NCBI RefSeq assembly: GCF_003334315.1 | Contig: NZ_QOWR01000009.1 | Strand: one strand, 5' to 3' | Length of the DNA stretch: 64,000 nt | Source: Escherichia coli | GTDB taxonomy: Bacteria > Pseudomonadota > Gammaproteobacteria > Enterobacterales > Enterobacteriaceae | Part shown: positions 519 to 57,031 of the stretch, one piece after another | Layout of the letters: the number at the start of each line of letters is the position of its first letter | Numbering within the stretch: position 1 is the stretch's first letter | The notes under the pieces: generated by a model | Databases searched by the model: none | What the model was told of the DNA's origin: nothing | Seen by the model: only the letters and a program-made list of their open reading frames with translations | Translations under genes and position numbers: made by a program

Positions 519-743
519 TAATATGTTCCTTAATAAAATTTATTTTTGGTTGTTAAGAGTCTGTATCTCTTGGAAACAAATTTCTCACATCAAAAAAGTT
601 GCCGCAATGTAAACACATTGTTTTATTGATTTAAAAAAAATTAACAATTGCAATATAAATACAACAAATATTTAAGAGTATTAACTATTTATCGCATCTA
701 TCAATTAATGTAGATTTATGTAAATGGTATTGTTGATATCAAT

Positions 744-780
744 AAAAAAGCCGAAATCATTTATATAAATGATTTCGGCT
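744..780 (-). terminator. Intrinsic terminator downstream of yehE
   Basis: Inverted repeat agccgaaatcat / atgatttcggct (749-780) followed on the minus strand by a T-run (A-run 744-749 on +). Confidence 0.55.
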
Positions 781-811
781 TTCTAAATGCAATTAAAATC
801 AGGTTGCCAAA

Positions 812-1093
812 TTAATCGTAGCGATTTAACACGATTCGACGTTTGCTATCGCTACCTGCAACAACCACTTCTGTCGTTACACCTTTGACGGGCGAAGAAA
901 ACAGATGACGGGTGTCAACATTATACGTTAACTGACCACAATGCTGTTGAGGTTGACCATTAACCATAGCCATACTGCATGTTGGGGGACTGATCCTGCC
1001 ATTAATCGCTAATGTGGCAGTCTCTGAAGAGAATGCGGGAGAAGCCAATCCATAGGCAAGAAAAATAATTCCTGACAGCCAATACTTATTCAT
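812..1093 (-). CDS. yehE: Small secreted protein YehE-like (93 aa)
   Basis: ORF track 812..1093 (-), 93 aa, N-terminal signal peptide; position between fimbrial gene and apbC matches E. coli yehE. Confidence 0.75.
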   Translation of the reverse strand: MNKYWLSGIIFLAYGLASPAFSSETATLAINGRISPPTCSMAMVNGQPQQHCGQLTYNVDTRHLFSSPVKGVTTEVVVAGSDSKRRIVLNRYD

Positions 1094-1282
1094 TGAACGT
1101 TATCCCTGTAGTAAAGGTTATGCCTGGATAGAATGAGTGCATAACAAACTATAGCTGTACATCCACTACACAGCCACGAAGGATGATAATGAAGCATTGC
1201 CTGTATGATCAATCGACTTTGTAGAGTTTCGGACGAAGGTCCGCAGAATATTCGCAGTATTAAATAAGTGTTCATTAATGCG

Positions 1283-1325
1283 GCAAAAACTAATACACCG
1301 CATCAATGTAACATCTCTGCGGTGT
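1283..1325 (-). terminator. Putative terminator downstream of apbC
   Basis: 7-bp inverted repeat acaccgc ... gcggtgt (1295-1301 / 1319-1325) followed on minus strand by T-rich tract; long loop so only moderate. Confidence 0.35.
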
Positions 1326-1355
1326 ATGAAGAATAACCAGAATGGTTAATAGGCG

Positions 1356-2465
1356 TTAGACCGCGCGGAAGGAAATCTCGCCTGGAATGACTTCACCCTG
1401 CCAGTAGAGCTGAGCTGCAACGCGGTCAGCCAGCTGGCGGTAGATAGCGGTAAATTCGCTCTCCGGACGGCTGATAACCGTTGGCGTACCTTTATCGAGA
1501 TCCTCACGTAAGGAGATGTGTAACGGCATCTGCCCCAGCAGCTGTGTATGGTATTTTTCAGCCAGTTTCTCTGCACCACCGGTACCGAAAATCGGTTCAT
1601 GGTGACCACAGTTACTGCAAATATGCACACTCATGTTCTCGACAATACCGAGCACCGGAACCTCGACTTTCTCGAACATCACAATGCCTTTTTTCGCATC
1701 GATCAGCGCGATGTCCTGCGGGGTGGTGACCACGACTGCACCGGTTACTGGAATGTTTTGCGCCAGCGTCAATTGAATGTCACCGGTGCCTGGCGGCATA
1801 TCAAGCACCAGATAGTCGAGATCCGGCCACAAGGTTTCCTGCAACATCTGCATTAACGCCTTGCTCGCCATCGGTCCACGCCACACCATCGCATTGTCGT
1901 CAGTGACCAGATAACCAATTGAATTGGTTGCCAGGCCATGAGACATAATCGGTGCCATATGGGTACCGTCCGGCGAAGTTGGACGCTGATTTTCTGCGCC
2001 CAACATTGTTGGGATTGATGGGCCGTAGATATCGGCGTCCAGAATGCCGACTTTCGCCCCTTCTGCCGCCAGCGCCAGTGCCAGGTTTACCGCCGTGGAC
2101 GATTTACCCACGCCGCCTTTACCGGAACTCACCGCGATAATGTTCTTCACACCGTTAATTCCCGGCTGATTCTTCACGCGTTTCAGAGTGGCTATGTTAT
2201 ACGACAGTTTCCAGTCGATAGCTTTCGCCCCGGTGATGCGCAGCAGTTCGGCGCTACATTGCTCTTTTAACTCTTCGAACGCGCTATGCCAGACAAACGG
2301 CATAACCAGTTCCACATGCAACGTGTCGTCCATCCAGGCGACATGGTGCAACGCTTTCAGCGTGGTGAGGTTATGCTTCAGGGTTGGGTGCTGAAAATTG
2401 GCCAGTGTCCCGGCGACCATTGCGCGCAAGGCTTCTGGTGATTTGGCCTGGGATTGTTCGTTCAT
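1356..2465 (-). CDS. apbC: Fe-S cluster carrier ATPase ApbC/Mrp (369 aa)
   Basis: ORF 1356..2495 (-) trimmed to internal Met giving MNEQSQAKSPEALRAMV...; P-loop motif SGKGGVGKS; divergent from metG as in E. coli. Confidence 0.93.
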   Translation of the reverse strand: MNEQSQAKSPEALRAMVAGTLANFQHPTLKHNLTTLKALHHVAWMDDTLHVELVMPFVWHSAFEELKEQCSAELLRITGAKAIDWKLSYNIATLKRVKNQPGINGVKNIIAVSSGKGGVGKSSTAVNLALALAAEGAKVGILDADIYGPSIPTMLGAENQRPTSPDGTHMAPIMSHGLATNSIGYLVTDDNAMVWRGPMASKALMQMLQETLWPDLDYLVLDMPPGTGDIQLTLAQNIPVTGAVVVTTPQDIALIDAKKGIVMFEKVEVPVLGIVENMSVHICSNCGHHEPIFGTGGAEKLAEKYHTQLLGQMPLHISLREDLDKGTPTVISRPESEFTAIYRQLADRVAAQLYWQGEVIPGEISFRAV

Positions 2466-2596
2466 CCCGACTCCTTTTTTGTATAGATAAACCATCAGCT
2501 GATAGTTTACCTGAAGAATATAGAGAAGTACTTACTTAACATTTTCCCATTTGGTACTATCTAACCCCTTTTCACTATTAAGAAGTAATGCCTACT

Positions 2597-4630
2597 ATGA
2601 CTCAAGTCGCGAAGAAAATTCTGGTGACGTGCGCACTGCCGTACGCTAACGGCTCAATCCACCTCGGCCATATGCTGGAGCACATCCAGGCTGATGTCTG
2701 GGTCCGTTACCAGCGAATGCGCGGCCACGAGGTCAACTTCATCTGCGCCGACGATGCCCACGGTACACCGATCATGCTGAAAGCTCAGCAGCTTGGTATC
2801 ACCCCGGAGCAGATGATTGGCGAAATGAGTCAGGAGCATCAGACTGATTTCGCAGGCTTTAACATCAGCTATGACAACTATCACTCGACGCACAGCGAAG
2901 AGAACCGCCAGTTGTCAGAACTTATCTACTCTCGCCTGAAAGAGAACGGTTTTATTAAAAACCGCACCATCTCTCAGCTGTACGATCCGGAAAAAGGCAT
3001 GTTCCTGCCGGACCGTTTTGTGAAAGGCACCTGCCCGAAATGTAAATCCCCGGATCAATACGGCGATAACTGCGAAGTCTGCGGCGCGACCTACAGCCCG
3101 ACTGAATTGATCGAGCCGAAATCGGTGGTTTCTGGCGCTACGCCGGTAATGCGTGATTCTGAACACTTCTTCTTTGATCTGCCCTCTTTCAGCGAAATGT
3201 TGCAGGCATGGACCCGCAGCGGTGCGTTGCAGGAGCAGGTGGCAAATAAAATGCAGGAGTGGTTTGAATCCGGCCTGCAACAGTGGGATATCTCCCGCGA
3301 CGCGCCATACTTTGGTTTTGAAATTCCGAACGCGCCGGGCAAATATTTCTACGTCTGGCTGGACGCACCGATTGGCTACATGGGTTCTTTCAAGAATCTG
3401 TGCGACAAGCGCGGCGACAGCGTAAGCTTCGATGAATACTGGAAGAAAGACTCCACCGCCGAACTGTACCACTTCATCGGTAAAGATATCGTTTACTTCC
3501 ACAGCCTGTTCTGGCCTGCCATGCTGGAAGGCAGCAACTTCCGCAAGCCGACCAACCTGTTTGTTCATGGCTATGTGACGGTGAACGGCGCGAAGATGTC
3601 CAAGTCTCGCGGCACCTTTATTAAAGCCAGCACCTGGCTGAATCATTTTGACGCTGACAGCCTGCGTTACTACTACACTGCGAAACTCTCTTCGCGCATT
3701 GATGATATCGATCTCAACCTGGAGGATTTCGTTCAGCGCGTGAATGCCGATATCGTTAACAAAGTGGTTAACCTGGCCTCCCGTAACGCGGGCTTTATCA
3801 ACAAACGTTTTGACGGCGTGCTGGCAAACGAACTGGCTGACCCGCAGTTGTACAAAACCTTCACTGATGCCGCTGAAGTGATTGGTGAAGCGTGGGAAAG
3901 CCGTGAATTTGGTAAAGCTGTGCGCGAAATCATGGCGCTGGCTGATCTGGCTAACCGCTATGTCGATGAACAGGCTCCGTGGGTAGTCGCAAAACAGGAA
4001 GGTCGCGATGCTGACCTGCAGGCGATTTGCTCAATGGGCATCAACCTGTTCCGCGTGCTGATGACTTACCTGAAGCCGGTACTGCCGAAACTGACCGAGC
4101 GTGCAGAAGCCTTCCTCAATACGGAACTGACCTGGGATGGTATCCAGCAACCGCTGCTGGGCCACAAAGTGAATCCGTTCAAGGCGCTGTATAACCGCAT
4201 CGATATGAAACAGGTTGAAGCTCTGGTGGAAGCCTCTAAAGAAGAAGTGAAAGCAGCTGCCGCGCCAGTTACTGGCCCACTGGCAGATGATCCGATTCAG
4301 GAAACCATCACCTTTGACGACTTCGCCAAAGTTGACCTGCGCGTAGCGCTGATCGAAAACGCAGAGTTTGTTGAAGGTTCTGACAAACTGCTGCGCCTGA
4401 CACTGGATCTCGGCGGTGAAAAACGCAATGTCTTCTCCGGTATTCGTTCTGCCTACCCGGATCCGCAGGCACTGATTGGTCGTCACACCATTATGGTGGC
4501 TAACCTGGCACCACGTAAAATGCGCTTTGGAATCTCCGAAGGCATGGTGATGGCTGCCGGTCCAGGCGGGAAAGATATCTTCCTGCTAAGCCCGGATGCT
4601 GGTGCTAAACCGGGTCATCAGGTGAAATAA
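2597..4630 (+). CDS. metG: Methionyl-tRNA synthetase (677 aa)
   Basis: ORF 2588..4630 trimmed to [29 protein letters not shown] (HIGH-type motif HLGH), KMSKS motif present (AKMSKSRG). Confidence 0.97.
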
Positions 4631-4639
4631 TCCCCCTTC

Positions 4640-4670
4640 AAGGCGCTGCATCGACAGCGCCTTTTCTTTA
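4640..4670 (+). terminator. Intrinsic terminator after metG
   Basis: Hairpin aaggcgctg-catcga-cagcgcctt at 4640-4663 followed by ttttcttt. Confidence 0.65.
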
Positions 4671-4770
4671 TAAATTCCTAAAGTTGTTTTCTTGCGATTT
4701 TGTCTCTCTCTAACCCGCATAAATACTGGTAGCATCTGCATTCAACTGGATAAAATTACAGGGATGCAGA

Positions 4771-7700
4771 ATGAGACACTTTATCTATCAGGACGAAAAA
4801 TCACATAAATTCTGGGCGGTGGAGCAACAGGGAAACGAGTTGCATATCAGTTGGGGAAAAGTTGGCACCAAAGGGCAAAGTCAGATAAAAAGTTTTTCAG
4901 ATGCTGCGGCAGCGGAAAAAGCGGAACTTAAGCTGATTGCGGAGAAGGTGAAGAAGGGGTATGTGGAGCAAGCGAAGGATAATTCTTTGCAACCTTCCCA
5001 AACGGTAACGGGCTCTCTCAAGGTAGCGGACTTATCCACCATTATTCAGGAACAACCCTCTTTCGTAGCAGAAACCCGTGCGCCTGACAAAAATACAGAT
5101 GCTGTTTTACCGTGGCTGGCGAAAGATATTGCTGTCGTTTTTCCGCCCGAAGTTGTACACACCACGTTAAGTCATCGCCGCTTTCCCGGAGTTCCTGTTC
5201 AGCAAGCAGACAAATTGACCCAATTACGTCGCTTAGCCTGTAGTGTGTCGCAACGGGATAATAAAACAGCCACATTTGACTTCAGCGCCTGTTCTTTAGA
5301 ATGGCAAAACACCGTCGCCCAGGCGATCAGTCAGATCGACGGCCTGAAAACAACACAGTTACCATCACCAGTAATGGCTGTACTCACGGCACTTGAAATG
5401 AAATGCACAAGATATAAAGTGCGTGAGGATGTTATGGATCAGATCGTCCAGGAAGGCGGTCTGGAATATGCTACTGATGTAATAATACACCTTCAACAGA
5501 TTGATATTGAATGGGATTATGCGAATAATGTCATTATTATTCTGCCGTCTGGCATTGCACCTAGCTACTTGGAGCAATATTCCAGATTTGAATTACGCCT
5601 ACGTAAACATTTATCACTGACGGAAGAGTCTCTCTGGCAAAAATGTGCACAAAAACTTATTGCCGCAATTCCACATATTCCAGAATGGCGGCAACCATTA
5701 ATTGCTTTGTTATTACCCGAAAAACCAGAAATTGCACATGAAATTGCCCAGCGTCTACTGGGGCAAAAAAAATTACCCTCGCTTGAGTGGTTAAAAATAG
5801 TGGCGACTGATGAGCACATTCTTGCCTCATTAGAAAAATATCACGAACCATATGCCATTTTTGATGATTACTATTGTGGTGCGATATGGTCAGCCACCGT
5901 ATTACAGGAGCAAGGTGTTGCAGCCCTGCCCCGATTTGCTCCCTATGCCGCAAGTGACTACTGCGCCGATGTGTTGCGTCATATCAATCATCCGTTCGCA
6001 TTGACACTGCTTATACGTGTAGCCGGGCAAACTAAACGCTGTCACGATCGGATGACGAAAGCCATTGCTGCGTTCCCACATGCAGCAATGGCGGCACTGA
6101 CGGAACTTCTTGGGCAAAAAGAAGAGAACAGTTGGCGCATTATGCTAATGACAATGCTTATCTCACAACCAGCACTGGCAGAACAGGTCATTCCCTGGCT
6201 CTCGACACCCGCAGTTGCCGTACTGAAATCATGCCAGCAACAACTGACACAGCCCTCAAACCATGCCAGCGCCGATCTACTGCCAGCCGTAGTAGTCTCC
6301 CCTCCCTGGCTTTCGAAAAAGAAAAAATCGCCGATTCCGGTGCTGGATTTAGCGCCATTAGGCATTGAGCCAATCTGTTATCTGACAGAAGAAATCAGTA
6401 ATCAACTTTTGGCGAAATATATCTGGTATTCAAAACACATCACGGTTAGCCATGAAGAAAGTACTACCAACCTGTTGGCAAGGATGGGTTTTCAACGACG
6501 GATCGCTGGTACATATATTAAAGCTCCCGAAGCGGTAGTTGAGGCATGGCTAAATGAAGATTATTCAACCTTACTAAGTGAATTTAAGGTGTTTCATTCA
6601 CCTACCGGGCATTATTGGCAGTTGGGGATTTTGACAACATTGCCGCTGGAGAAAGCAGTAAAAGCATGGAATGCCCTTACCCTATCTCCACATACCGATA
6701 CCGAATACTCCATGTTACATTTTGGACTCAAAGGGTTACCTGGGTTAGTAAACTCACTTGCACGCTATCCACAAGAAGCCTTGCCCATCACGAATTACTT
6801 CGCAGCGAGTGAGCTGGCTCCTGCCGTCGCCCGTGCCTTCAACAAACTGAAAACGCTACGCGAAAACGCCCGTAGCTGGCTGTTGAAATACCCGGAACAT
6901 GCCCTTACCGGCCTGCTGCCTGCGGCGCTCGGCAAAGCCGGTGAAGCACAGGATAACGCCCGCGCTGCCTTGCGTATGCTTACCGAAAACGGTCATCAGC
7001 CATTACTGCAAGAAATCGCCCGACGTTATAACCAGCCGGAAGTAACCGATGCGGTGAACGCTCTGCTTGCGCTCGATCCCTTAGATAATCACCCGACAAA
7101 AATCCCCACTCTTCCGGCCTTTTATCAGCCATCGCTCTGGACGCGCCCGGTATTAAAAGCAAATGCCCAATCACTGCCAGATAGCGCCCTCCTCCACCTC
7201 GGTGAAATGCTCCGCTTCCCTCAGGAAGAGGCTCTGTATCCGGGATTATTGCAGGTGAAAGACGTCTGTTCCGCCGACTCACTGGCGGGATTTGCCTGGG
7301 ATCTGTTTACCGCCTGGCAGACCGCTGGCGCGCCGTCGAAAGAGAGTTGGGCGTTCACTGCGTTAGGCGTTCTCGGTAACGATGACACCGCCCGCAAACT
7401 GACGCCATTAATACGCGCCTGGCCTGGTGAATCCCAGCATAAACGCGCCACCGTTGGGTTGGATATTCTCGCTGCTATCGGTAGTGATATCGCCCTTATG
7501 CAGCTTAACGGCATCGCCCAGAAACTGAAATTCAAAGCATTACAGGAGCGGGCAAAAGAAAAAATTGCCGACATTGCCGAGAGCCGCGAACTCACGGTGG
7601 CGGAGCTTGAAGATCGGTTAGCACCGGATCTCGGTCTGGATGATAACGGTTCGCTGCTGCTGGATTTTGGCCCACGGCAGTTCACCGTCAGCTTTGATGA

Positions 7701-8565
7701 AACCTTAAAACCGTTTGTGCGTGATGTTTCCGGCAGCCGCCTGAAGGACCTGCCCAAACCGAACAAAAGCGATGATGAAACGCGGGCGAACGATGCGGTT
7801 AACCGCTACAAATTGCTGAAAAAAGATGCGCGTACCATCGCCGCCCAGCAGGTAGCAAGGCTGGAATCCGCCATGTGCCTGCGCCGCCGCTGGTCGCTGG
7901 AAAACTTCCAGCTCTTCCTGGTTGAGCATCCGCTGGTTCGTCACTTAACCCGCCGTCTGATTTGGGGCGTTTATAGCGCCGAAAACCAGCTACTGGCTTG
8001 CTTTCGCGTAGCAGAAGATAACAGCTCCAGCACCGCTGACGATGATCTTTTCACCCTGCCGGAAGGCGATATCTCTATCGGCACTCCTCACGTTCTGGAA
8101 ATATCACCAACGGATGCTGCCGCCTTTGGTCAGCTTTTTGCCGACTACGAACTGCTACCACCGTTCCGCCAGCTCGACCGTAACAGCTACGCCCTGACAG
8201 AAGCCGAGCGCAATGCCAGTGAACTGACCCGCTGGGCAGGCAGAAAATGCCCGAGTGGTCGGGTCATGGGGCTGGCGAATAAAGGCTGGATAAAGGGCGA
8301 ACCACAGGATGGAGGCTGGATCGGATGGATGATCAAACCTTTGGGTCGCTGGTCGTTAATCATGGAAATCGATGAAGGCTTTGCGGTAGGCATGTCGCCA
8401 GCCGAACTCAGCGCTGAGCAGCTCTTAAGCAAGCTGTGGCTATGGGAAGGCAAAGCAGAAAGATATGGCTGGGGGAGTAATTCAACACAGGAAGCGCAGT
8501 TCTCCGTAATCGATGCCATCACCGCCAGCGAGCTAATTAACGATATTGAAGCCCTGTTTGAATAA
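4771..8565 (+). CDS. yehH: Large MolR-like protein with N-terminal WGR domain (1264 aa), intact
   Basis: Single uninterrupted ORF; N-terminus MRHFIYQDEKSHKFWAVEQQGNELHISWGKVGTKGQ shows the W-G-K/R signature of WGR domains; remainder paralogous to downstream YehI. Confidence 0.85.
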   Translation: MRHFIYQDEKSHKFWAVEQQGNELHISWGKVGTKGQSQIKSFSDAAAAEKAELKLIAEKVKKGYVEQAKDNSLQPSQTVTGSLKVADLSTIIQEQPSFVAETRAPDKNTDAVLPWLAKDIAVVFPPEVVHTTLSHRRFPGVPVQQADKLTQLRRLACSVSQRDNKTATFDFSACSLEWQNTVAQAISQIDGLKTTQLPSPVMAVLTALEMKCTRYKVREDVMDQIVQEGGLEYATDVIIHLQQIDIEWDYANNVIIILPSGIAPSYLEQYSRFELRLRKHLSLTEESLWQKCAQKLIAAIPHIPEWRQPLIALLLPEKPEIAHEIAQRLLGQKKLPSLEWLKIVATDEHILASLEKYHEPYAIFDDYYCGAIWSATVLQEQGVAALPRFAPYAASDYCADVLRHINHPFALTLLIRVAGQTKRCHDRMTKAIAAFPHAAMAALTELLGQKEENSWRIMLMTMLISQPALAEQVIPWLSTPAVAVLKSCQQQLTQPSNHASADLLPAVVVSPPWLSKKKKSPIPVLDLAPLGIEPICYLTEEISNQLLAKYIWYSKHITVSHEESTTNLLARMGFQRRIAGTYIKAPEAVVEAWLNEDYSTLLSEFKVFHSPTGHYWQLGILTTLPLEKAVKAWNALTLSPHTDTEYSMLHFGLKGLPGLVNSLARYPQEALPITNYFAASELAPAVARAFNKLKTLRENARSWLLKYPEHALTGLLPAALGKAGEAQDNARAALRMLTENGHQPLLQEIARRYNQPEVTDAVNALLALDPLDNHPTKIPTLPAFYQPSLWTRPVLKANAQSLPDSALLHLGEMLRFPQEEALYPGLLQVKDVCSADSLAGFAWDLFTAWQTAGAPSKESWAFTALGVLGNDDTARKLTPLIRAWPGESQHKRATVGLDILAAIGSDIALMQLNGIAQKLKFKALQERAKEKIADIAESRELTVAELEDRLAPDLGLDDNGSLLLDFGPRQFTVSFDETLKPFVRDVSGSRLKDLPKPNKSDDETRANDAVNRYKLLKKDARTIAAQQVARLESAMCLRRRWSLENFQLFLVEHPLVRHLTRRLIWGVYSAENQLLACFRVAEDNSSSTADDDLFTLPEGDISIGTPHVLEISPTDAAAFGQLFADYELLPPFRQLDRNSYALTEAERNASELTRWAGRKCPSGRVMGLANKGWIKGEPQDGGWIGWMIKPLGRWSLIMEIDEGFAVGMSPAELSAEQLLSKLWLWEGKAERYGWGSNSTQEAQFSVIDAITASELINDIEALFE

Positions 8566-12891: not shown

Positions 12892-13979
12892 ATGTCACCG
12901 CAGAATAATCATCTGCAGCGTCCGCCTGCTGCTGTGTTATACGCCGATGAACTGGCAAAATTAAAACAAAATGATAACGCACCTTGCCCGCCCGGTTGGC
13001 AGTTAAGTTTGCCTGCGGCCCGTGCTTTTATCCTTGGCGACGAAGCGCAAAATATCAGCCGTAAAGTGGTGATTAGCCCCTCCGCTGTCGAACGTATGTT
13101 AGTCACTCTTGCTACCGGCCGCGGTTTGATGTTGGTGGGGGAACCGGGTACCGCAAAATCTCTTCTTTCTGAATTACTGGCAACCGCTATTAGCGGCGAT
13201 GCCGGGTTAACCATCCAGGGCGGGGCATCTACCACCGAAGATCAAATCAAGTATGGCTGGAACTACGCCCTGCTTATCAATCATGGTCCGTCAACGGAAG
13301 CGCTGGTCCCTGCCCCGCTTTATCAGGGAATGCGCGACGGCAAAATCGTCCGTTTCGAAGAGATAACGCGTACACCGCTGGAAGTGCAGGACTGTCTGTT
13401 AGGTATGCTTTCTGACAGGGTGATGACGGTGCCGGAACTCACTGGTGAAGCCAGTCAGCTCTATGCGCGAGAAGGCTTTAATATTATTGCCACTGCCAAT
13501 ACCCGCGATCGCGGCGTCAATGAAATGAGTGCTGCGCTAAAGCGTCGCTTCGATTTTGAAACGGTTTTTCCGATTATGGATTTCGCCCAGGAGTTGGAAC
13601 TGGTCGCCAGTGCTTCGGCGCGTTTGCTGGCCCATAGCGGTATTCCGCATAAAGTGCCTGACGCGGTACTGGAATTACTGGTCCGCACCTTCCGCGATCT
13701 GCGTGCCAACGGCGAAAAGAAAACGTCAATGGATACACTGACAGCGATTATGTCCACCGCTGAAGCCGTGAACGTGCCCATGCTGTGGGCGTCCGCGCCT
13801 GGTTTTTAGCGAATCGCGCGGGGGAGCCTGCCGACCTGGTGGAATGTATTGCCGGAACCATCGTCAAAGATAACGAAGAAGATCGCGCGCGTCTGCGCCG
13901 TTACTTCGAACAGCGTGTCGCCACACATAAAGAAGCTCACTGGCAGGCTTATTATCAAGCCCGCCACCGCCTGCCGTGA
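12892..13979 (+). pseudogene. yehL: MoxR-type AAA+ ATPase YehL, disrupted by apparent 1-nt deletion (frame A ends at TAG 13807-13809; remainder continues in -1 frame to 13979)
   Basis: ORF 12826..13809 trimmed to MSPQNNH at 12892; Walker A LVGEPGTAKS (~13138-13161). The -1 frame is open from 13764 to TGA 13977-13979; joined length equals 362 codons, matching my recollection of K-12 YehL. T5 run at 13803-13807 is the likely indel site. Confidence 0.6.
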
Positions 13980-13989
13980 GGAAAGATGC

Positions 13990-16269
13990 ATGAGCGAGCC
14001 GTTAATTGTCGGCATCCGGCATCATAGTCCGGCCTGCGCCCGGCTGGTGAAATCGTTAATCGAAAGCCAGCGGCCACGATACGTGTTGATTGAAGGCCCG
14101 GCTGATTTTAATGACCGGGTAGACGAACTGTTTTTAGCCCACCAGCTTCCGGTAGCTATTTACAGTTATTGCCAGTATCAGGACGGTGCAGCCCCCGGGC
14201 GTGGTGCCTGGACGCCATTTGCTGAATTTTCGCCGGAGTGGCAGGCGCTACAAGCCGCACGTCGCATTCAGGCACAAACTTACTTCATCGATTTGCCTTG
14301 CTGGGCGCAGAGTGAAGAAGAGGACGATTCGCCTGATACGCAAGATGAAAGCCAGGCCTTACTGCTGCGTGCCACCCGCATGGATAACAGCGATACCCTG
14401 TGGGATCACTTGTTCGAAGATGAAAGCCAGCAAACTGCATTACCCTCTGCGCTGGCGCACTATTTTGCCCAACTGCGGGGCGACGCCTCCGGCGATGCGC
14501 TCAATCGTCAGCGCGAAGCCTTTATGGCCCGCTGGATTGGATGGGCGATGCAGCAAAATAATGGCGACGTGTTAGTTGTCTGCGGTGGCTGGCACGCTCC
14601 GGCACTGGCAAAGATGTGGCGCGAATGCCCTCAGAAAATTAACAAGCCAGAATTGCCCTCGCTGGCAGATGCCGTTACAGGTTGTTATCTCACACCCTAC
14701 AGTGAAAAGCGCCTTGATGTGCTGGCAGGATACCTTTCAGGAATGCCTGCCCCGGTATGGCAAAACTGGTGCTGGCAGTGGGGCTTGCAGAAGGCCGGTG
14801 AACAACTGCTAAAAACTATCCTTACCCGTTTGCGCCAGCACAAATTGCCCGCTTCTACCGCGGATATGGCTGCCGCTCATCTGCATGCGATGGCGCTGGC
14901 ACAGTTGCGCGGTCATACACTACCGTTACGCACTGACTGGCTGGATGCCATAGCAGGCTCGCTGATTAAAGAAGCCCTGAACGCGCCGTTGCCGTGGAGC
15001 TATCGCGGCGTTATTCATCCCGATACCGATCCGATTCTGCTAACGTTGATAGACACATTAGCGGGTGACGGATTCGGTAAACTTGCCCCTTCTACGCCAC
15101 AACCGCCTCTGCCAAAAGATGTCACCTGCGAACTGGAACGTACCGCAATCTCCCTTCCGGCGGAGCTTACCTTAAATCGCTTTACCCCCGATGGGCTGGC
15201 GCAAAGTCAGGTGTTACATCGGCTGGCAATACTGGAGATCCCTGGGATTGTACGCCAGCAGGGAAGTACACTGACACTTGCAGGCAACGGTGAAGAACGC
15301 TGGAAATTAACCCGCCCGCTTAGCCAGCATGCGGCATTGATTGAGGCCGCCTGTTTTGGTGCCACACTCTAGGAAGCCGCACGCAATAAATTAGAAGCCG
15401 ATATGCTGGACGCGGGCGGAATCGGCAGTATCACCACATGTCTTAGCCAGGAGGCGTTAGCGGGTCTGGCGTCCTTCAGTCAACAATTACTGGAGCAACT
15501 CACACTATTAATCGCCCAGGAAAATCAATTTGCCGAAATGGGCCAGGCGCTGGAAGTGCTTTATGCCTTATGGCGGCTGGATGAAATTAGCGGTATGCAA
15601 GGCGCGCAGATATTACAAACGACGTTATGCGCGACTATCGATCGCACGCTGTGGCTGTGTGAATCTAACGGCAGACCGGATGAAAAGGAGTTTCACGCTC
15701 ACCTGCATAGCTGGCAAGCGCTTTGCCATATTCTGCGCGATCTACATAGCGGCGTTAATTTACCCGGCGTTTCTCTTTCTGCGGCGGTAGCCTTACTGGA
15801 GCGACGCAGTCAGGCAATTCATGCCCCGGCGCTGGATCGCGGCGCGGCTCTTGGCGCACTAATGCGTCTGGAACATCCCAACGCCAGTGCCGAAGCGGCG
15901 CTGACGATGCTGGCGCAGTTATCCCCGGCACAATCTGGTGAGGCGCTGCACGGTTTGCTGGCGCTGGCCCGCCATCAACTGGCCTGTCAGCCGGCATTTA
16001 TCGCCGGTTTCAGCAGTCATTTAAATCAACTGAGTGAAGCCGATTTTATTAACGCCCTGCCCGATTTACGCGCGGCGATGGCCTGGCTACCACCACGAGA
16101 ACGCGGGACGCTGGCGCATCAGGTGCTTGAGCATTATCAACTGGCGCAACTTCCCGTTTCGGCGCTGCAAATGCCGTTGCATTGTCCACCACAGGCCATT
16201 GCACATCATCAACAACTCGAACAGCAGGCACTGGCATCGCTGCAAAACTGGGGAGTTTTCCATGTCTGA
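13990..16269 (+). pseudogene. yehM: Large uncharacterised protein YehM with in-frame amber codon (TAG 15370-15372); two ORF halves 13990..15372 and 15373..16269 in the same frame
   Basis: ORFs 13849..15372 and 15403..16269 are in the same reading frame separated only by TAG; read-through length 759 codons equals my recollection of K-12 YehM. Start at MSEPLIVGIRHHSP (13990). Confidence 0.6.
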
Positions 16270-34803: not shown

Positions 34804-35565
34804 CTATTCTGGGTTGAACTGTGGATTCGCCAACATAAAGCCGCCATCCACTATCAACGACTGCCCGGTGGTGTAATTTGCGCCCTCCGAACAAAGCCAC
34901 ACCACCAGGCTGGCAATCTCATGCGTTGCGCCAAAACGCCGCAAGGGAATCGAAGGCTCCGCGTCGGGCTTCACGTCGCTGTCATCCATGCCATTCATTG
35001 GCGTGGCGATCGCCCCAGGCGCGACTGCGTTCACCAAAATCTTATGCCTGACCAGCTCCAGCGCCATCGCTTTGGTTAACCCACCGAGCGCATGTTTAGC
35101 GGCTGTGTAGGCGCTGGCATCCGGCAGCGGCGTATGTTCATGTACCGACGTAATGTTGATGATGCGACCGCCCTGCCCTTGTTTCACCATCTGACGAGCC
35201 GCAATTTGCGAGCATAAGAATGCACCATCGACATCAACGGTAAAAATCTTGCGCCACTCATCAAAAGCCATATCAAGAAACGGCGCTTTGGTCATTGCAC
35301 CCGCATTATTCACCAGCACATCAATGCGCCCCAGCCGTTGAATGAGTTTCTCCAGCGCCAGTGCCCCTTCTGGTAGATTGCCGAGATCCAGCTGCACGAT
35401 CTCCGCACGTACGCCGTGGCTAACTACCTCACGCGCGGTATCTTTTGCCCCTTCTTCATCTGAGTGCCAGGTAATACCAATATCAAACCCCTGCTGCGCC
35501 AGTAATAACGCGCACTCTTTGCCGATCCCCGAATCGGAGGCGGTAATAATCGCAACCTGTGCCAT
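34804..35565 (-). CDS. yohF: Short-chain dehydrogenase/reductase YohF (253 aa)
   Basis: MAQVAIITASDSGIGK (Rossmann TGxxxGxG-like). Confidence 0.87.
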   Translation of the reverse strand: MAQVAIITASDSGIGKECALLLAQQGFDIGITWHSDEEGAKDTAREVVSHGVRAEIVQLDLGNLPEGALALEKLIQRLGRIDVLVNNAGAMTKAPFLDMAFDEWRKIFTVDVDGAFLCSQIAARQMVKQGQGGRIINITSVHEHTPLPDASAYTAAKHALGGLTKAMALELVRHKILVNAVAPGAIATPMNGMDDSDVKPDAEPSIPLRRFGATHEIASLVVWLCSEGANYTTGQSLIVDGGFMLANPQFNPE

Positions 35566-35617: not shown

Positions 35618-37054
35618 TCAGCGTTTGTAACCCCCGCCCAACGCACCAGTGAGTTGAATGGAGGCATCCAGCCACTGCCCTTGCAATAACAGGCCATTGG
35701 CCCGCTCACGCAGCGCGGGGATTCTGGCTTCGCTGACGCGGGAACCAGCAATGATGCCCGCGTTAAAGCGCGCCTGCGCAAGACCTACCACACGCAAGGC
35801 ATCGCGCTCAATTTGCGCCTGATGCTGGTTTTTCTCCGCCAGTGTCTGAACCTGACTGGCTGCCCGCGCCACGTCATTCACCGCTTCAACCACCGCTTTG
35901 TTGTAGCTGGCGATAGACAAGTTGCTTTCGGCTTTTGCGATATCGAGATTGGCGTTAAGACGACCACTATCGAAAATGGGTAGCGTCAGGCCTGCCGTAA
36001 CGCCCATTTGCTGCGCGGAATGACGGAACAGATCGCTTAAGTGCAACGCATCCTGTTGCAGGAAGGCCATCAGGTTGATGTCAGGATAAAATGCCGCTTT
36101 TGCCGCATCAATGGTGCTTAGCGATGACTCAACGTACCAGTGCGCCGCCTGCAAATCTGCCCGCCGGGCCAGTAAGGAGTACCCCAGTTCATCAGGAAGC
36201 TGGCTTGCCACTTTCGGCAACGCGACCGGTTTAAGCTTCAATGACTTTGTCTGGTTATTTGTAAGTGCGCTTAACCGTGCCTCAATAATTTTCATTTTCC
36301 CCGCGACATCGTTGAGCTGCTGCCGGGTTTTGCTGGCATTAATATCGGTTTCCACACCTTCAACTGAAGAAGTAATCCCGTTCTGATATAGCTGGCGATC
36401 GGTCGCGATAATGGTGTTCTGCTCTTTTTCTATTTGCTGCAAGACCGTGTTTAACGCCGCCTGGGTTTGCCACTCCCAGTACAGGCGGGCTACGCTGCCA
36501 GCCAGCAATTGGCGGGTTTGCTCGCGTTCCGCCGCCCGTGCTTTAACCGTACCCAGGCGGGCAGTAACCTCCGCCCGATTCTTTCCCCAGATATCGAGAT
36601 GCCAGCCCGCCGTTAAGCCAAAAGTACCGTTGGTGTACCACGGGCCGGTCGTACCTGCGGCCGGATCGTTCAGAGCAAACGGCCCCATTAAGCCTTCTGC
36701 CGACATTTTTTGCCGCTCCATATCCGCCGAAAAGTCGATCTGCGGACCATCCTGAGTGGCAACTGCCTTCGCCTGGGCTTCAGCTAGCTGAATGCGCTGT
36801 TCAGCCACCTGCATATCCGGTGCGTTCTGTAGTGCATTGTTAATTAAGGAAGTGAGTTGATTATCGTGATACTCCAGCCACCATTGGCTGTCTGGCCAAC
36901 CATTTTTCAGCGCCGTGGGTAATGCGGTGTCAACTTGTGCAGCGGGCGTTTGCTGGCTTAACGCCTGGCGGGTTTCATGCATAGGCGCACACCCGGCCAG
37001 CATCAGTAACAGCGGAAAACAGGCGATGGCTGGATAAAAGGAATCACGATTCAT
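35618..37054 (-). CDS. mdtQ: Outer-membrane efflux lipoprotein MdtQ (478 aa), intact
   Basis: ORF trimmed to MNRDSFYPAIACFPLLLMLAGCAP (lipobox). Confidence 0.8.
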   Translation of the reverse strand: MNRDSFYPAIACFPLLLMLAGCAPMHETRQALSQQTPAAQVDTALPTALKNGWPDSQWWLEYHDNQLTSLINNALQNAPDMQVAEQRIQLAEAQAKAVATQDGPQIDFSADMERQKMSAEGLMGPFALNDPAAGTTGPWYTNGTFGLTAGWHLDIWGKNRAEVTARLGTVKARAAEREQTRQLLAGSVARLYWEWQTQAALNTVLQQIEKEQNTIIATDRQLYQNGITSSVEGVETDINASKTRQQLNDVAGKMKIIEARLSALTNNQTKSLKLKPVALPKVASQLPDELGYSLLARRADLQAAHWYVESSLSTIDAAKAAFYPDINLMAFLQQDALHLSDLFRHSAQQMGVTAGLTLPIFDSGRLNANLDIAKAESNLSIASYNKAVVEAVNDVARAASQVQTLAEKNQHQAQIERDALRVVGLAQARFNAGIIAGSRVSEARIPALRERANGLLLQGQWLDASIQLTGALGGGYKR

Positions 37055-37277
37055 GGGGGAATAATCAGGTAAGAAAAGGTGCGCGGAGATTACCGTGTGT
37101 TGCGATATATTTTTTAGTTTCGCGTGGCAATACATCAGTGGCAATAAAACGACATATCCAGAAAAATATACACTAAGTGAATGATATCTTCCGATTTATC
37201 TTAATCGTTTATGGATAACGGCAAAGGGCTTCGTTTTTTCCTATACTTATTCAGCACTCACAAATAAAGGAACGCCA

Positions 37278-37361
37278 ATGAAAATTATACTCTGGGCTGT
37301 ATTGATTATTTTCCTGATTGGGCTACTGGTGGTGACTGGCGTATTTAAGATGATATTTTAA
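37278..37361 (+). CDS. yohP: Small membrane protein YohP (27 aa)
   Basis: RBS aaggaacgcc then ATG; MKIILWAVLIIFLIGLLVVTGVFKMIF; too short for ORF track. Confidence 0.55.
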   Translation: MKIILWAVLIIFLIGLLVVTGVFKMIF

Positions 37362-37446
37362 AATTAATTAATGTCATCAGGTCCGAAAATAACGAGAATA
37401 TTTCAGTCTCTCATCCTGTTGCGCTCCTGTCATGTGCATTGCTTCA

Positions 37447-37700
37447 TATAATCACTGGCGCAAGGAGCGCGCAGGGGGCGGCCAATCGCCGCCGCCCCCT
37501 GCACCCCCGGGCTCTGGCGAACAAAATCGCCGCTGCGCGGTGCCCTCGACTTATCCCTTACGGCTACCGGGTCGGGCGCGAGGTAACATCCCTGTAAAAC
37601 GCGCCCTCAGCCCACATCCATGTGGGCTGCCCCGGCCTTCAGGGAACGCCTCGGCAATTTTGACGCCACCAAACAACCGTGCGGCCTATTGATAAAGAGC
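37447..37700. other. GC-rich structured intergenic island with two perfect hairpins (possible boxC-like repeat or structured RNA)
   Basis: Inverted repeat gcagggggcggc-caatc-gccgccgccccctgc (37471-37502) and cagcccacat-cc-atgtgggctg (37608-37629) inside a strongly GC-rich stretch flanked by AT-rich DNA. Confidence 0.4.
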
Positions 37701-37733: not shown

Positions 37734-38681
37734 TTAGAGTTTCTCGATATCAATTGCCTGAATAGCCCTTGCAATATCAGGGGAATTATTCAACACCCGA
37801 ACATGCTGAAATAATTCCGTTGCTTCATCGTATTCTTTACGCAAATAACTCAACCACTGTTTAATCCGCGCAACGTGATATAACCCGGTATCGCCCTGCT
37901 TTTCCAGACGGGTATATTTTTGCAGCAAAGCAACCACCTCCGGCCACGGCATTCGCGGTTCGTTATATTTTACCACCCGGCTCAGGTTGGGAATATTGAG
38001 CGCCCCGCGACCAATCATCACTGCGTCGCAGCCGCTGATCGCCATGCATTGTTGCGCGCTCTGCCAGTCCCAGATTTCACCGTTGGCAATCACCGGAATA
38101 TTCAGCCGCTGGCGAATATCGCCAATCGCCTGCCAGTCAATATGCTCCGCGCGGTAACCCTGCTCTTTCGTCCGCCCATGCACCACCAGCTCCGTAGCAC
38201 CAGCCTGTTGAACCGCATCGGCGATTTCAAATTTCTTCTCACCGCTGTCCCAGCCCAGACGCACTTTCACGCTGACGGGCAAATGCGCCGGTACAGCTTC
38301 ACGCATCGCTTTTGCACCCTGGTAGATGAGTTCAGGATCTTTGAGTAACGTCGCCCCGCCGCCGCTACCGTTAACCGTTTTCGACGGGCAGCCGCAATTG
38401 AGATCCACGCCCCAGGAACCTAACTCCACCGCACGGGCGGCGTTCTCTGCCAGCCATTGTGGGAACTGACCTAACAACTGCACGCGCACCAGCGTACCAG
38501 ATGGTGTCCGGCTGGCGTTTTGTAGCTCAGGGCAAATGCGATGAAAGACTTTTACCGGCAGCAGTTGATCCACCACGCGGACAAACTCGGTGATGCACAG
38601 ATCGTAGTCGTTAACTTCGGTCAGCAATTCACGCACCAGAGAGTCAAGCACTCCCTCCATCGGTGCCAGTAACACACGCAT
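37734..38681 (-). CDS. dusC: tRNA-dihydrouridine synthase C (315 aa)
   Basis: ORF trimmed to [19 protein letters not shown]. Confidence 0.92.
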
Positions 38682-53073: not shown

Positions 53074-55065
53074 TCAGAAGCGATAATCCACTGCCATAAA
53101 GTAACGACGTCCGTCTTCGTTATAGCTGTAGTCGTCACGACTGAGATCCTTGTCGCCAAGGTTCAGCACGCCTGCGCGCAGTTTGACGTCTTTAGTCACC
53201 TGCCAGGCCGCGCCGGTATTCCAGATGGTATAACCGCCCGGTGTTTTAGCCGTCGCGCTGTCGGCGCGTTTCTGCCCGGTATAGTGCCCAGAAACATAGA
53301 ATGACCAGTCTTCCAGCGCCAGCGGTTTCCAGTCCAGCGTACCGTTAGCAGTATGGAACGGCAGATCGGATAGCGGTTTGTTTTCGCCGTTGCTGACATC
53401 ACGACCATCGTTGTAGGTGTAGTTGATCGACAGTTTCCATTCATCGTTGAACGGAATTTTCAGTTCGGTTTCCACGCCCTGAATACGAGCTTTGTTAACG
53501 TTGTAGTAGCTAAATACCGGTATGCGCCGTCCGTTAGCGCCCGTCTCAAAACCAACAAAGTTTTGGTAGCCCGGTGCAGCGTTGACGTCAGACGTACGGC
53601 TGATGCTGATACGATCTTTCACATCGTTACGGAAAACGGTAACGCTGGATTCAACCCCTTCCAGCCAGCCTTCTTCACCCATGTAGTAAAGCCCCAGCTC
53701 CCAACTTTCGCTGGTTTCTGGTTTCAGATCCGGGCTACCCACAATCTTACATGCGCCACGGCAGGAATTGCTCGTCCAGTCAGGGCTAAGTTGCAACAGA
53801 GAAGGTGCTTTAAATGCCGTCGCCCAGCCCCCTTTCACCGTTACGGTGTCGGTGGCGTTATAAACCAGGTAGGCACGCGGACTCCAGTGTTCACCGTAGG
53901 TTTCATGATCGTCCATACGTACGCCGGTCGTCAGCGCCAGCGGCTCGAAGATCCGCCATTCATCTTCCACAAACAGCGCGTACTGGCTGGCAGACGTTTT
54001 GGAGCTGGTTCCCCCGGTCAGGTTCACCGCATCGCTAAGTTTGTCGTGACGCCATTCACCGCCAACCGTGAGAAACTGATTAATCGCCGTCAGCGGCAAC
54101 GTGTATTTGCCGTCGACCGTATTGCTTTCGGAAGTTATCGGGCTGCTGTTGCCAGGGTTTTTGTTCTCGACTTTCTCACCGTAGTATTTCAGTTCGCTGG
54201 TGCCGTAATCCCAACGCCCATTATGGCTGACGGAGTAGTTCTGGCGTTCCAGGCGGTTTTTGTCCAGCGAGTCGGAATCACGATCCTGACGGTCGAAACC
54301 GTATCCGGCAGTAAAATCGTGATTTTGATTCGGTGTCCAGGCAAATTCGACATTGCCGTCGCGGCTGGAGAATCCTTCAATACGCGGCGTTTCTCCGGTA
54401 TCGGTGGTCGTTGAGTTTTGCGGGTCATCCTTTTCACGTTTTGCCAGGCTGCCGTAAGCTTTCATTCCCAGCACGCCGTCAATTAATGGTCCGCTGGTAA
54501 AGAACTGACCGTTATAGGTATCACCGCGATCGCGATGTTCCTGAACGGTGGTATCGACGGTAACGGTGCCCGACCATTTCTGACCGATTTTTTTGGTGAT
54601 GATATTCACTACACCGCCGAGCGCATCGGAACCGTACAGCGACGACATCGGGCCACGGACCACTTCAATACGTTCGATGGAATCGACCGGGATCCAGTTC
54701 AGATCGAAATCATTGTGGCGGAAGACGGCATTGCGGGAGTTAACGCGTTTACCGTCGACAAGAATCAGGGTGTAGCTGCTGTCCAGACCACGAATACTAA
54801 CGCCCTTACGGTTATCCCCTTCGTTCGTCAGTTGTACGCCAGGCACTTCTTTGAGGACATCCTTCAGATTCTGTACCGGTTTTCGCTGCAGGTCTTCCTG
54901 GGTAATGACGCTGATACTGGCGGGTGCATCTTTAAGGTTTTGTTCAACGGAAGATGCAGTGACAACCATCGTTTCGCCATCATCATCGACCGCTAACACA
55001 GGCCATGCACAAGAAATAGCGGACAAACACAGCCCGACCCGTACGAAAGGGTTCAACCTAAACAT
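53074..55065 (-). CDS. cirA: TonB-dependent catecholate siderophore/colicin I receptor CirA (663 aa)
   Basis: Signal peptide, TonB box region, C-terminal ...YRF. Confidence 0.95.
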
Positions 55066-55234
55066 TCCATATCTCCATGAGGTAACTACGAAAATAAAAT
55101 GGGTTATCGCTCACATCTTCTTCACGTCCCCTTGCGTACGGCAGCATCGCGGTGGACTTATTTGTATGCAGGTGATCATCCCAGAAAGCCGGACCAGCCT
55201 CTGATTTGTCAGCCTTTTTTGATTGCGGCGTAAC

Positions 55235-55259
55235 GATAATGCAAACGATAACAATTATC
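55235..55259. promoter_or_regulatory. Fur-box-like sequence upstream of cirA
   Basis: gataatgcaaacgataacaattatc resembles the GATAAT-rich Fur consensus. Confidence 0.4.
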
Positions 55260-55311
55260 AATCCAAATGTTAAATTTTATATCCGCATGATTTGTCAGGG
55301 AAATGGAATTG

Positions 55312-55336
55312 AAAAAGCCCTCTCGGTTGAGAGGGC
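55312..55336 (-). terminator. Intrinsic terminator after lysP
   Basis: Hairpin gccctctc-ggtt-gagagggc (55317-55336) with T-run on minus strand (aaaaa 55312-55316 on +). Confidence 0.65.
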
Positions 55337-55357
55337 TTAGCAAGGAAGGGAGGAAAC

Positions 55358-56827
55358 TTATTTCTTATCGTTCTGCGGGAACTTCATTTCGCTGTAGCGT
55401 ACGAAGTGAGTTCCTTTAATCAGCTTGTAGCCGAACCAAATAATCAGGAACAGCGGGATACCAATATACGTTGCCGCTACGCCGCCCCAGTCAATAGTAT
55501 CTTTCAGGAACGCTTCGTAGTTCTGGCCCAAAGTGATAATCAGACACAGAATGAATGCGAAGATCGGCCCCAATGGGAAGAAACCTGAACGGTACGGCAG
55601 ATCGTTAATGTCGTGTCCCTGCAATACGTAACCGCGACGGAAGCGATAGTGGCTAATGGCAATCCCCAGCCAGGCGATAAAACCCGTCATCCCGGAGGTA
55701 TTCAGCAGCCACAGGTATACCGTCTGGTTGCCAAACATGGAGGTCAGGAAGCACAGACCGGCAATCACCGTCGTCGCATACAGCGCATTACGCGGCACGC
55801 CACCACGCGACAGTTTAGCGAAAATGCGCGGCGCTTTACCGTCACACGCCAGGGTGTACAGCATACGAGTAGACGCATACATACCGGAGTTACCGGCTGA
55901 CAGCACCGCCGTCAGAATAACTGCGTTCATCACCGCCGCCGCAGAGAGCAGACCCGCGTGCTGGAACACCAGGGTGAACGGACTAACGCTGATGTCTTTA
56001 ACATCGTTACGCAGCAGGCTCGGATCGGTGTACGGAATAATGAGGCTGATAATCAGGATCGCGAACACATAGAACAACAGGATTCGCCAGAACACCTGAC
56101 GTACCGCGCGTGGAATGTTTTTCGCCGGATCTTCGGACTCGCCTGCAGCAATACCGATCAGCTCGGTTCCCTGGAAAGAGAAGCCGACAATCATAGCTAC
56201 GCCGATCATCGCCGCAAAACCACCAGCAAACGGCGCTTCGCCGATTGTCCAGTTGCTCCAGCCCGCAGGCTGCGCGCCTTTGAAGATACCGATAATCATC
56301 AGCACGCCAACGATGATAAAGACAATAACTGTCGTGACTTTGATCAGTGAGAACCAGTATTCCGCTTCACCAAAGCCACGAACTGAGATGTAGTTCAGCA
56401 GGAAGATAACGCCGAGGAACAACGCACTCCAGATCCAGCCCGGTGTATCCGGGAACCACCAGCTCATGACCAGCTGAGCTGCAACCAGGTCAACGGCGAT
56501 AGTCACCGCCCAGTTGTACCAGTAGTTCCAGCCCAGCGCGAAGCCAAAGCCTTCTTCAACATAGTTCTGACCGTAAGTGGCAAACGAACCGGAAACCGGC
56601 ATATATGCAGCCAGTTCACCGAGACTGGTCATCAGGAAGTAAACCATCAGGCCAATCAACATATACGAGAGCAATGCCCCGCCCGGACCTGCCTGAGAAA
56701 TCGTTGCGCCAGAGGCAACAAAAAGACCTGTACCGATGGAACCGCCAATGGCAATCATCGTCAGGTGACGCGCCTTTAATTCACGGCGTAAGCCCGGCGC
56801 TTCTGTGGTTTTAGTTTCGGAAACCAT
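55358..56827 (-). CDS. lysP: Lysine-specific permease LysP (489 aa)
   Basis: APC-family amino acid permease. Confidence 0.95.
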   Translation of the reverse strand: MVSETKTTEAPGLRRELKARHLTMIAIGGSIGTGLFVASGATISQAGPGGALLSYMLIGLMVYFLMTSLGELAAYMPVSGSFATYGQNYVEEGFGFALGWNYWYNWAVTIAVDLVAAQLVMSWWFPDTPGWIWSALFLGVIFLLNYISVRGFGEAEYWFSLIKVTTVIVFIIVGVLMIIGIFKGAQPAGWSNWTIGEAPFAGGFAAMIGVAMIVGFSFQGTELIGIAAGESEDPAKNIPRAVRQVFWRILLFYVFAILIISLIIPYTDPSLLRNDVKDISVSPFTLVFQHAGLLSAAAVMNAVILTAVLSAGNSGMYASTRMLYTLACDGKAPRIFAKLSRGGVPRNALYATTVIAGLCFLTSMFGNQTVYLWLLNTSGMTGFIAWLGIAISHYRFRRGYVLQGHDINDLPYRSGFFPLGPIFAFILCLIITLGQNYEAFLKDTIDWGGVAATYIGIPLFLIIWFGYKLIKGTHFVRYSEMKFPQNDKK

Positions 56828-57031
56828 ACAAAAATGCTATCCATCTAAAAAATGAGGCGCGATTGTAGCAGACGATTGGCAATCCTTCCGGCAGAAATAC
56901 ACGGTTATAAGACACCTTCATGATCGCCCAGGGATTATAAGTAAAGCAGCCAATCTCTTTTCTGGCGAATGCATGCTGAAGGCGCTGCGTCACGAAATCG
57001 ACACAGCACCAGCATGTTCTTGTACAGCAAC

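Follow-up and report, generated by a model that had tools for sequence, protein, structure and literature searches.

VceC from Vibrio cholerae, OprM and CusC are outer-membrane proteins built on two OEP repeats. The NodT-type lipoproteins among them carry a lipidated cysteine at the N-terminus, and their genes lie in operons together with those of an adaptor and a pump. TolC from Escherichia coli is not a lipoprotein, and it is encoded by a stand-alone gene. A further E. coli protein, MdtP (YjcP), is a NodT-type lipoprotein paralogous to MdtQ; its operon, mdtNOP, also specifies an adaptor and an MFS pump (2025 review). [quoted passage not shown] Intact mdtQ, as an annotated gene of the core genome, is already known. 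Here, we analysed mdtQ in a stretch of E. coli DNA of 64,000 nucleotides, hereafter referred to as the window. Segment 35618-37054 of the window, on the minus strand, is very probably the ancestral intact mdtQ, a stand-alone gene for an outer-membrane factor of the NodT/OEP type, in a strain that is a close relative of K-12 but does not belong to it.

The mdtQ (yohG) coding sequence (35618..37054, minus strand) was delimited from the list of open reading frames, the sequence and the match to the MdtQ family model. It starts with an ATG at 37054 and finishes with a TGA stop at 35620-35618, so that 478 codons and the stop occupy 1437 nucleotides, with no internal stop. At the base composition of the window (51% G+C), 478 consecutive sense codons would be expected by chance with a probability of about 4e-10. 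The protein scored 1024.4 bits against the NCBIfam MdtQ equivalog NF008524, for which the cut-off is 650, and residues 1-478 aligned to positions 1-478 of the 478 positions of the profile. The first-pass annotation, made from the sequence, had called the gene mdtQ and had described one intact frame of 478 codons. The name is borne out by the equivalog cut-off, passed from end to end, and the coordinates are exact; the strand, which had been left unstated, is minus. A longer frame of 508 codons (508 amino acids), opening at a TTG at 37144, has been annotated by some submitters. We rejected this reading because the MdtQ model aligns over 1-478 of 478 from the ATG, and because the signal peptide would end up 30 residues inside the protein.

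The N-terminus of MdtQ reads MNRDSFYPAIACFPLLLMLAGC/APMH. A lipoprotein signal peptide comprising residues 1-22 (36989..37054, minus strand), with the lipobox L-A-G-C, was recognised with a regular expression for the PROSITE-type lipobox rule. The rule is matched by the segment CFPLLLMLAGC, in which six uncharged residues are followed by ML-A-G-C, with the cysteine at position 22, and by Arg3, which is located in the n-region, within the first seven residues. A plausible lipoprotein signal (LLMLAGC) had been proposed earlier, and it satisfies the PROSITE-type rule with its cysteine at residue 22. Cys22 is predicted to be the lipidated first residue of mature MdtQ. The residue that follows is Ala23, not Asp. 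The '+2 Asp' sorting rule of the Lol system is established, and since the residue at position +2 is an alanine, MdtQ is predicted by this rule to be an outer-membrane lipoprotein.

The first OEP repeat of MdtQ consists of residues 69-266 (36257..36850, minus strand; Pfam PF02321, E = 2.2e-17) and the second of residues 293-473 (35636..36178, minus strand; PF02321, E = 9.8e-13). Against TIGR01845, the subfamily model of NodT-type outer-membrane subunits, the protein scored 274 bits, above the cut-off of 210. The subfamily score, the two tandem OEP repeats and the N-terminal lipobox with its cysteine are the characters of a NodT-type protein, and all three are found in MdtQ. Among solved structures, the nearest by sequence match is that of VceC (1yc9), with E = 1e-39 over nearly the full length. 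OprM, CmeC, SilC, CusC and OprN were also matched nearly full length, with E values from 1e-19 to 1e-24 (1e-21 to 1e-24 for OprM and CusC), and so were MtrE and OprJ. The exact protein of 478 amino acids, under the name MdtQ, is present on at least 1000 public contigs. Two other assignments were considered and ruled out. The best-scoring other family model was that of the paralogue MdtP (NF007390), against which MdtQ scored 356.2 bits with a cut-off of 597. Membership of the TolC subfamily (TIGR01844) was likewise dismissed, the score being 54.2 bits with a cut-off of 225. As judged from sequence comparison, MdtQ is a TolC homologue by fold that falls outside the TolC subfamily.

The gene is flanked downstream, on the same strand, by yohF (34804..35565, minus strand), which encodes an SDR oxidoreductase (NF009384, 485 bits, and the K-12 annotation) and no efflux component. 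The divergent upstream neighbour is yohP (37278..37361, plus strand), which encodes a small membrane protein of 27 amino acids (NF011345, 67 bits with a cut-off of 58). Next upstream is dusC (37734..38681, minus strand), which encodes the tRNA dihydrouridine-16 synthase (NF007838, 696 bits). The order yohF-mdtQ-yohP-dusC is that of K-12, which confirms the orthologous position on the chromosome. Neither an adaptor gene nor a pump gene adjoins mdtQ among these neighbours. The K-12 repeat TRIP1c, a reported hotspot of chromosomal rearrangement with TRIP1a, is separated by 363 bp from the yohG start, on the upstream side of that gene, and by 43 bp from the yohI/dusC stop, on the downstream side (PMC10888264). 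From these distances and the collinearity with K-12, the repeat is predicted at about 37418-37690 in the window, between yohP and dusC. In the 15-20 nucleotides that precede the mdtQ ATG (CCTGATTATTCCCCC-ATG; 37055-37075, minus strand), no recognisable purine-rich Shine-Dalgarno motif was found, and initiation of translation may be weak or unconventional. A scan for promoters and terminators around mdtQ gave no excess over shuffled sequence, with 2 sites found and 2.4 expected.

In MG1655, mdtQ (b2139; formerly yohG and yohH) is annotated as a pseudogene of 1436 nucleotides, and in another K-12 genome (O16:H48) it is noted as 'frameshifted'. In a pairwise alignment, the window gene is identical to b2139 at 1435 of 1437 positions, and there are two differences in all. 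One of them is located in a run of five A (T5 on the plus strand) at 36903..36907, minus strand, which covers gene nucleotides 148-152, namely the Lys50 codon and the first and second bases of the Asn51 codon; the alignment of the whole window likewise shows A5 there. With four A at codons 50-51, the K-12 gene undergoes a -1 frameshift and meets a stop codon once 69 amino acids have been encoded. After the A4 run the K-12 frame reads ...ALKMVGQTANGGWSITIINSLP*; the 428 codons that are left belong to a different frame and have no signal peptide. The other difference, at 35630 (minus strand), is synonymous, with GGT in the window and GGG in K-12 for Gly475. By this comparison, the K-12 pseudogene goes back to a deletion that is specific to the K-12 lineage and removed one A of the A5 run. 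The first-pass annotation had described mdtQ as a frameshifted pseudogene in K-12, and the annotations of MG1655 and of the O16:H48 genome agree with this, as does the alignment. The A4 lesion of K-12 is absent from the window, and the alignment revealed no other lesion there.

The state of the gene in the window is an ordinary one. A region of 1.8 kb containing mdtQ was compared with 5426 complete E. coli genomes; in 5408 of them at least 80% of it is matched, at 97.5-100% identity, and it is 100% identical in several independent wild isolates. Of the 5426 genomes, 4588, O157:H7 and ST131 included, contain an exact copy of the 61-mer that has the A5 run at its centre. The corresponding K-12 60-mer with A4 occurs in 355 of 5426; the 60 carriers listed are all K-12 laboratory derivatives, and MG1655, C600, DH5alpha, DH1, J53, NCM3722 and AG100 are among them. 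These allele counts are a proxy for intactness that covers the site of the A run alone and not the whole gene. Four divergent alleles, from MS10860, an O157:H7 strain, TCM3e1 and Ecol_542, are all annotated as intact, with 1437 nucleotides. Pairwise Nei-Gojobori estimates among these four alleles and the window gave dN/dS of 0.04-0.11 at dS of up to about 0.1, and the orthologue of E. albertii is 94% identical and aligns without gaps. Such values are a clear sign of long-term purifying selection on mdtQ. Intact mdtQ, estimated at about 85% or more of the complete genomes, is the norm of the species and the ordinary wild-type state, and therefore its presence says merely that a strain is not a K-12 laboratory derivative.

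Losses of the gene can also be found outside K-12. In E. coli 600055 (L009, locus 619-3404), mdtQ is split by an insertion of IS421. In CFSAN061769 (H40), 82 nucleotides of the query were matched, at the yohF end, and mdtQ is apparently deleted. The region of the A-run 61-mer is entirely absent in 18 of the 5426 genomes. Truncated mdtQ has been described in some isolates of Salmonella Typhi and Paratyphi A (PMC9241588). Taken together, K-12, 600055, the few absences and the Salmonella truncations indicate that loss of mdtQ has recurred and carries no obvious cost.

The window is collinear with positions 2191704-2255253 of MG1655, with 99.76% identity, 148 substitutions and 5 single-base indels over 63.5 kb. 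The differences are clustered, with 52 at window positions 2001-6000 and 71 at 54001-62000, while the 48 kb from 6 to 54 kb hold about 25, a divergence of about 0.05%. Recombined segments in a backbone that is otherwise K-12-like usually leave divergent blocks of this kind. The Swiss wastewater isolate 027_SK3 is closer to the window than MG1655 is, at 99.95% over 63.5 kb, with 28 substitutions and 2 indels, and EC812A1 is 99.9% identical over window positions 40-64 kb. The end of an IS1 element is found at 63548-64000, between rihB and yeiL. It matches IS1A-family copies at 100%, in a median of 11 places per genome. Both MG1655 and 027_SK3 lack an IS1 at this site, and collinearity with K-12 ends at 63548. 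A non-K-12 background had been proposed for the strain, and the 148 substitutions and 5 indels relative to MG1655, together with the extra IS1, bear this out. On these comparisons, the strain lies outside K-12 but is very closely related to it.

Several other features of the window could be noticed in the comparison with K-12. An open reading frame of 1264 amino acids (4771-8565, plus strand) spans, without interruption, K-12 yehF (b2115) and the yehH pseudogene (b4499), which we take to be fragments of the old molR. K-12 carries an extra G at 2199319, which corresponds to window position 7615, and 027_SK3 annotates a yehF-yehH gene of 3795 nucleotides as encoding an intact DUF4132 protein. 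Like mdtQ, the yehF-yehH gene is thus a pseudogene in K-12 and uninterrupted in the window strain. In yehL (about 12892-13809, plus strand), which encodes a MoxR-type AAA+ ATPase, there is a 1-base deletion at 13775 that changes GTGGCCC to GTGCCC. The frame shifts after about residue 295 and ends at 13809, compared with a normal length of 362 amino acids. The 61-mer with this deletion was found in none of the 5426 complete E. coli genomes (best match 98.4%), and the deletion is a lesion private to this genome or, alternatively, an error in the sequence. In yehM (13990-16269, plus strand), a change of CAG to TAG at 15370 replaces Gln461 with an amber codon, in a protein that has 759 amino acids in K-12; the substitution A488E, at 15452, is also present. 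The TAG 61-mer was likewise found in none of the 5426 genomes. In the yehLMPQ cluster, the window genome thus carries private inactivations of two neighbouring genes. At 20 positions (for example 637, 2201, 10981, 25744, 37549, 38199 and 45108), MG1655 and 027_SK3 agree with each other and the window departs from them. The spectrum of the 18 substitutions among these positions is skewed and strand-asymmetric, albeit on small numbers: 13 are G:C to A:T, of which 10 are G to A on the plus strand, and 1 is A:T to G:C.

The sole disabling difference between the two mdtQ alleles is one base in a homopolymer run, and the fifth A could be an error of sequencing or assembly in a strain that truly has A4. 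The two inactivating changes private to the window, the 1-base deletion in yehL and the stop in yehM, could hint at errors in the sequence as well. However, the A5 61-mer is found in 4588 of 5426 genomes, the surrounding 1.8 kb is 100% identical to several wild isolates, A4 is confined to K-12 laboratory strains among the carriers listed, and the window is clearly non-K-12; furthermore, a run of five is short for a homopolymer error. We consider such an error highly improbable. A K-12 derivative in which the A run slipped back to five would also show an intact frame, and mdtQ would then be uninformative about the background. The 2 nucleotides that separate the alleles and the central 48 kb, which are about 99.95% identical to MG1655, would fit a revertant of this kind. 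Against it stand the 148 substitutions and 5 indels found along 63.5 kb, with divergent blocks at 2-6 and 54-62 kb, the 1264-residue molR-type frame of yehF-yehH that is whole in the window and broken in K-12, the IS1 located between rihB and yeiL, a position at which MG1655 has no such element, and the closer relationship to 027_SK3 (99.95%) than to MG1655 (99.76%). It is the comparison of the whole window with MG1655, and not mdtQ alone, that refutes a revertant, and we regard this as the least probable of the explanations.

The main rival to a working gene is an intact one that makes little physiological contribution, because no Shine-Dalgarno motif was recognised, the promoter signal did not exceed background and the gene has been lost repeatedly. 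Such an mdtQ would be cryptic, or negligible in physiological terms: its transcription and translation would be poor, it would confer no measurable efflux, and it would be intact merely for want of time to decay. The absence of a Shine-Dalgarno motif before the ATG and a promoter signal no higher than background are in line with this, as are the independent losses tolerated in K-12, in 600055, in a few deletions and in some Typhi isolates, and the description of the function as 'not elucidated' (2025 review). [quoted passage not shown] In our opinion a cryptic mdtQ is unlikely. The first-pass annotation had suggested that the strain may retain a functional copy, and this is plausible for a gene that is free of lesions and that has dN/dS of 0.04-0.11.

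If the window gene is the ancestral intact mdtQ, a course for its product can be proposed from homology to VceC, OprM and CusC. The MdtQ precursor would be exported by Sec. At Cys22, Lgt and LspA would then add diacylglycerol and cleave the precursor, and Lnt would subsequently N-acylate it. With alanine at position +2, the lipoprotein would be delivered to the outer membrane by Lol. There, MdtQ would probably form a trimer composed of a 12-stranded β-barrel and a long α-helical periplasmic tunnel, and the tunnel could engage an adaptor in the periplasm and a pump in the inner membrane, both encoded elsewhere. For the orthologue, a structural model has been published. Puromycin, acriflavine and tetraphenylarsonium are examples of the amphiphilic cations that the assembly might export. 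By analogy with these systems, we infer that MdtQ is a TolC-like exit duct. Phenotypes of mdtQ null mutants were reportedly described by Sulavik et al. in 2001.

A broader proposal, which we put forward tentatively and consider somewhat doubtful, is that K-12 is a natural mdtQ mutant, and that efflux genetics based on K-12 has missed a working second exit duct of wild E. coli. If this were true, MdtQ could serve at least one inner-membrane pump, in parallel to TolC or instead of it, and could aid tolerance of particular cationic compounds or of toxins derived from the host. An annotation transferred from K-12 would wrongly label the mdtQ of the window as a pseudogene, and K-12 is a poor reference for this outer-membrane channel of the core genome.

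When compared with the described systems, MdtQ has in common with VceC, OprM and CusC the two OEP repeats and, with those that are NodT-type lipoproteins, a lipidated cysteine at the N-terminus, which in MdtQ is predicted from the lipobox. However, mdtQ stands alone, while the genes of these three proteins are found in operons with those of an adaptor and a pump. The same difference separates it from the paralogue MdtP, whose gene belongs to mdtNOP. In this respect mdtQ resembles tolC, which is likewise a stand-alone gene. The identity between the proteins MdtQ and TolC of E. coli is about 12% (2025 review). Compared with the MdtQ of the databases (478 amino acids), the copy in the window has the same length, the same lipobox and the same neighbourhood, and is a member of that family, not a variant of it.
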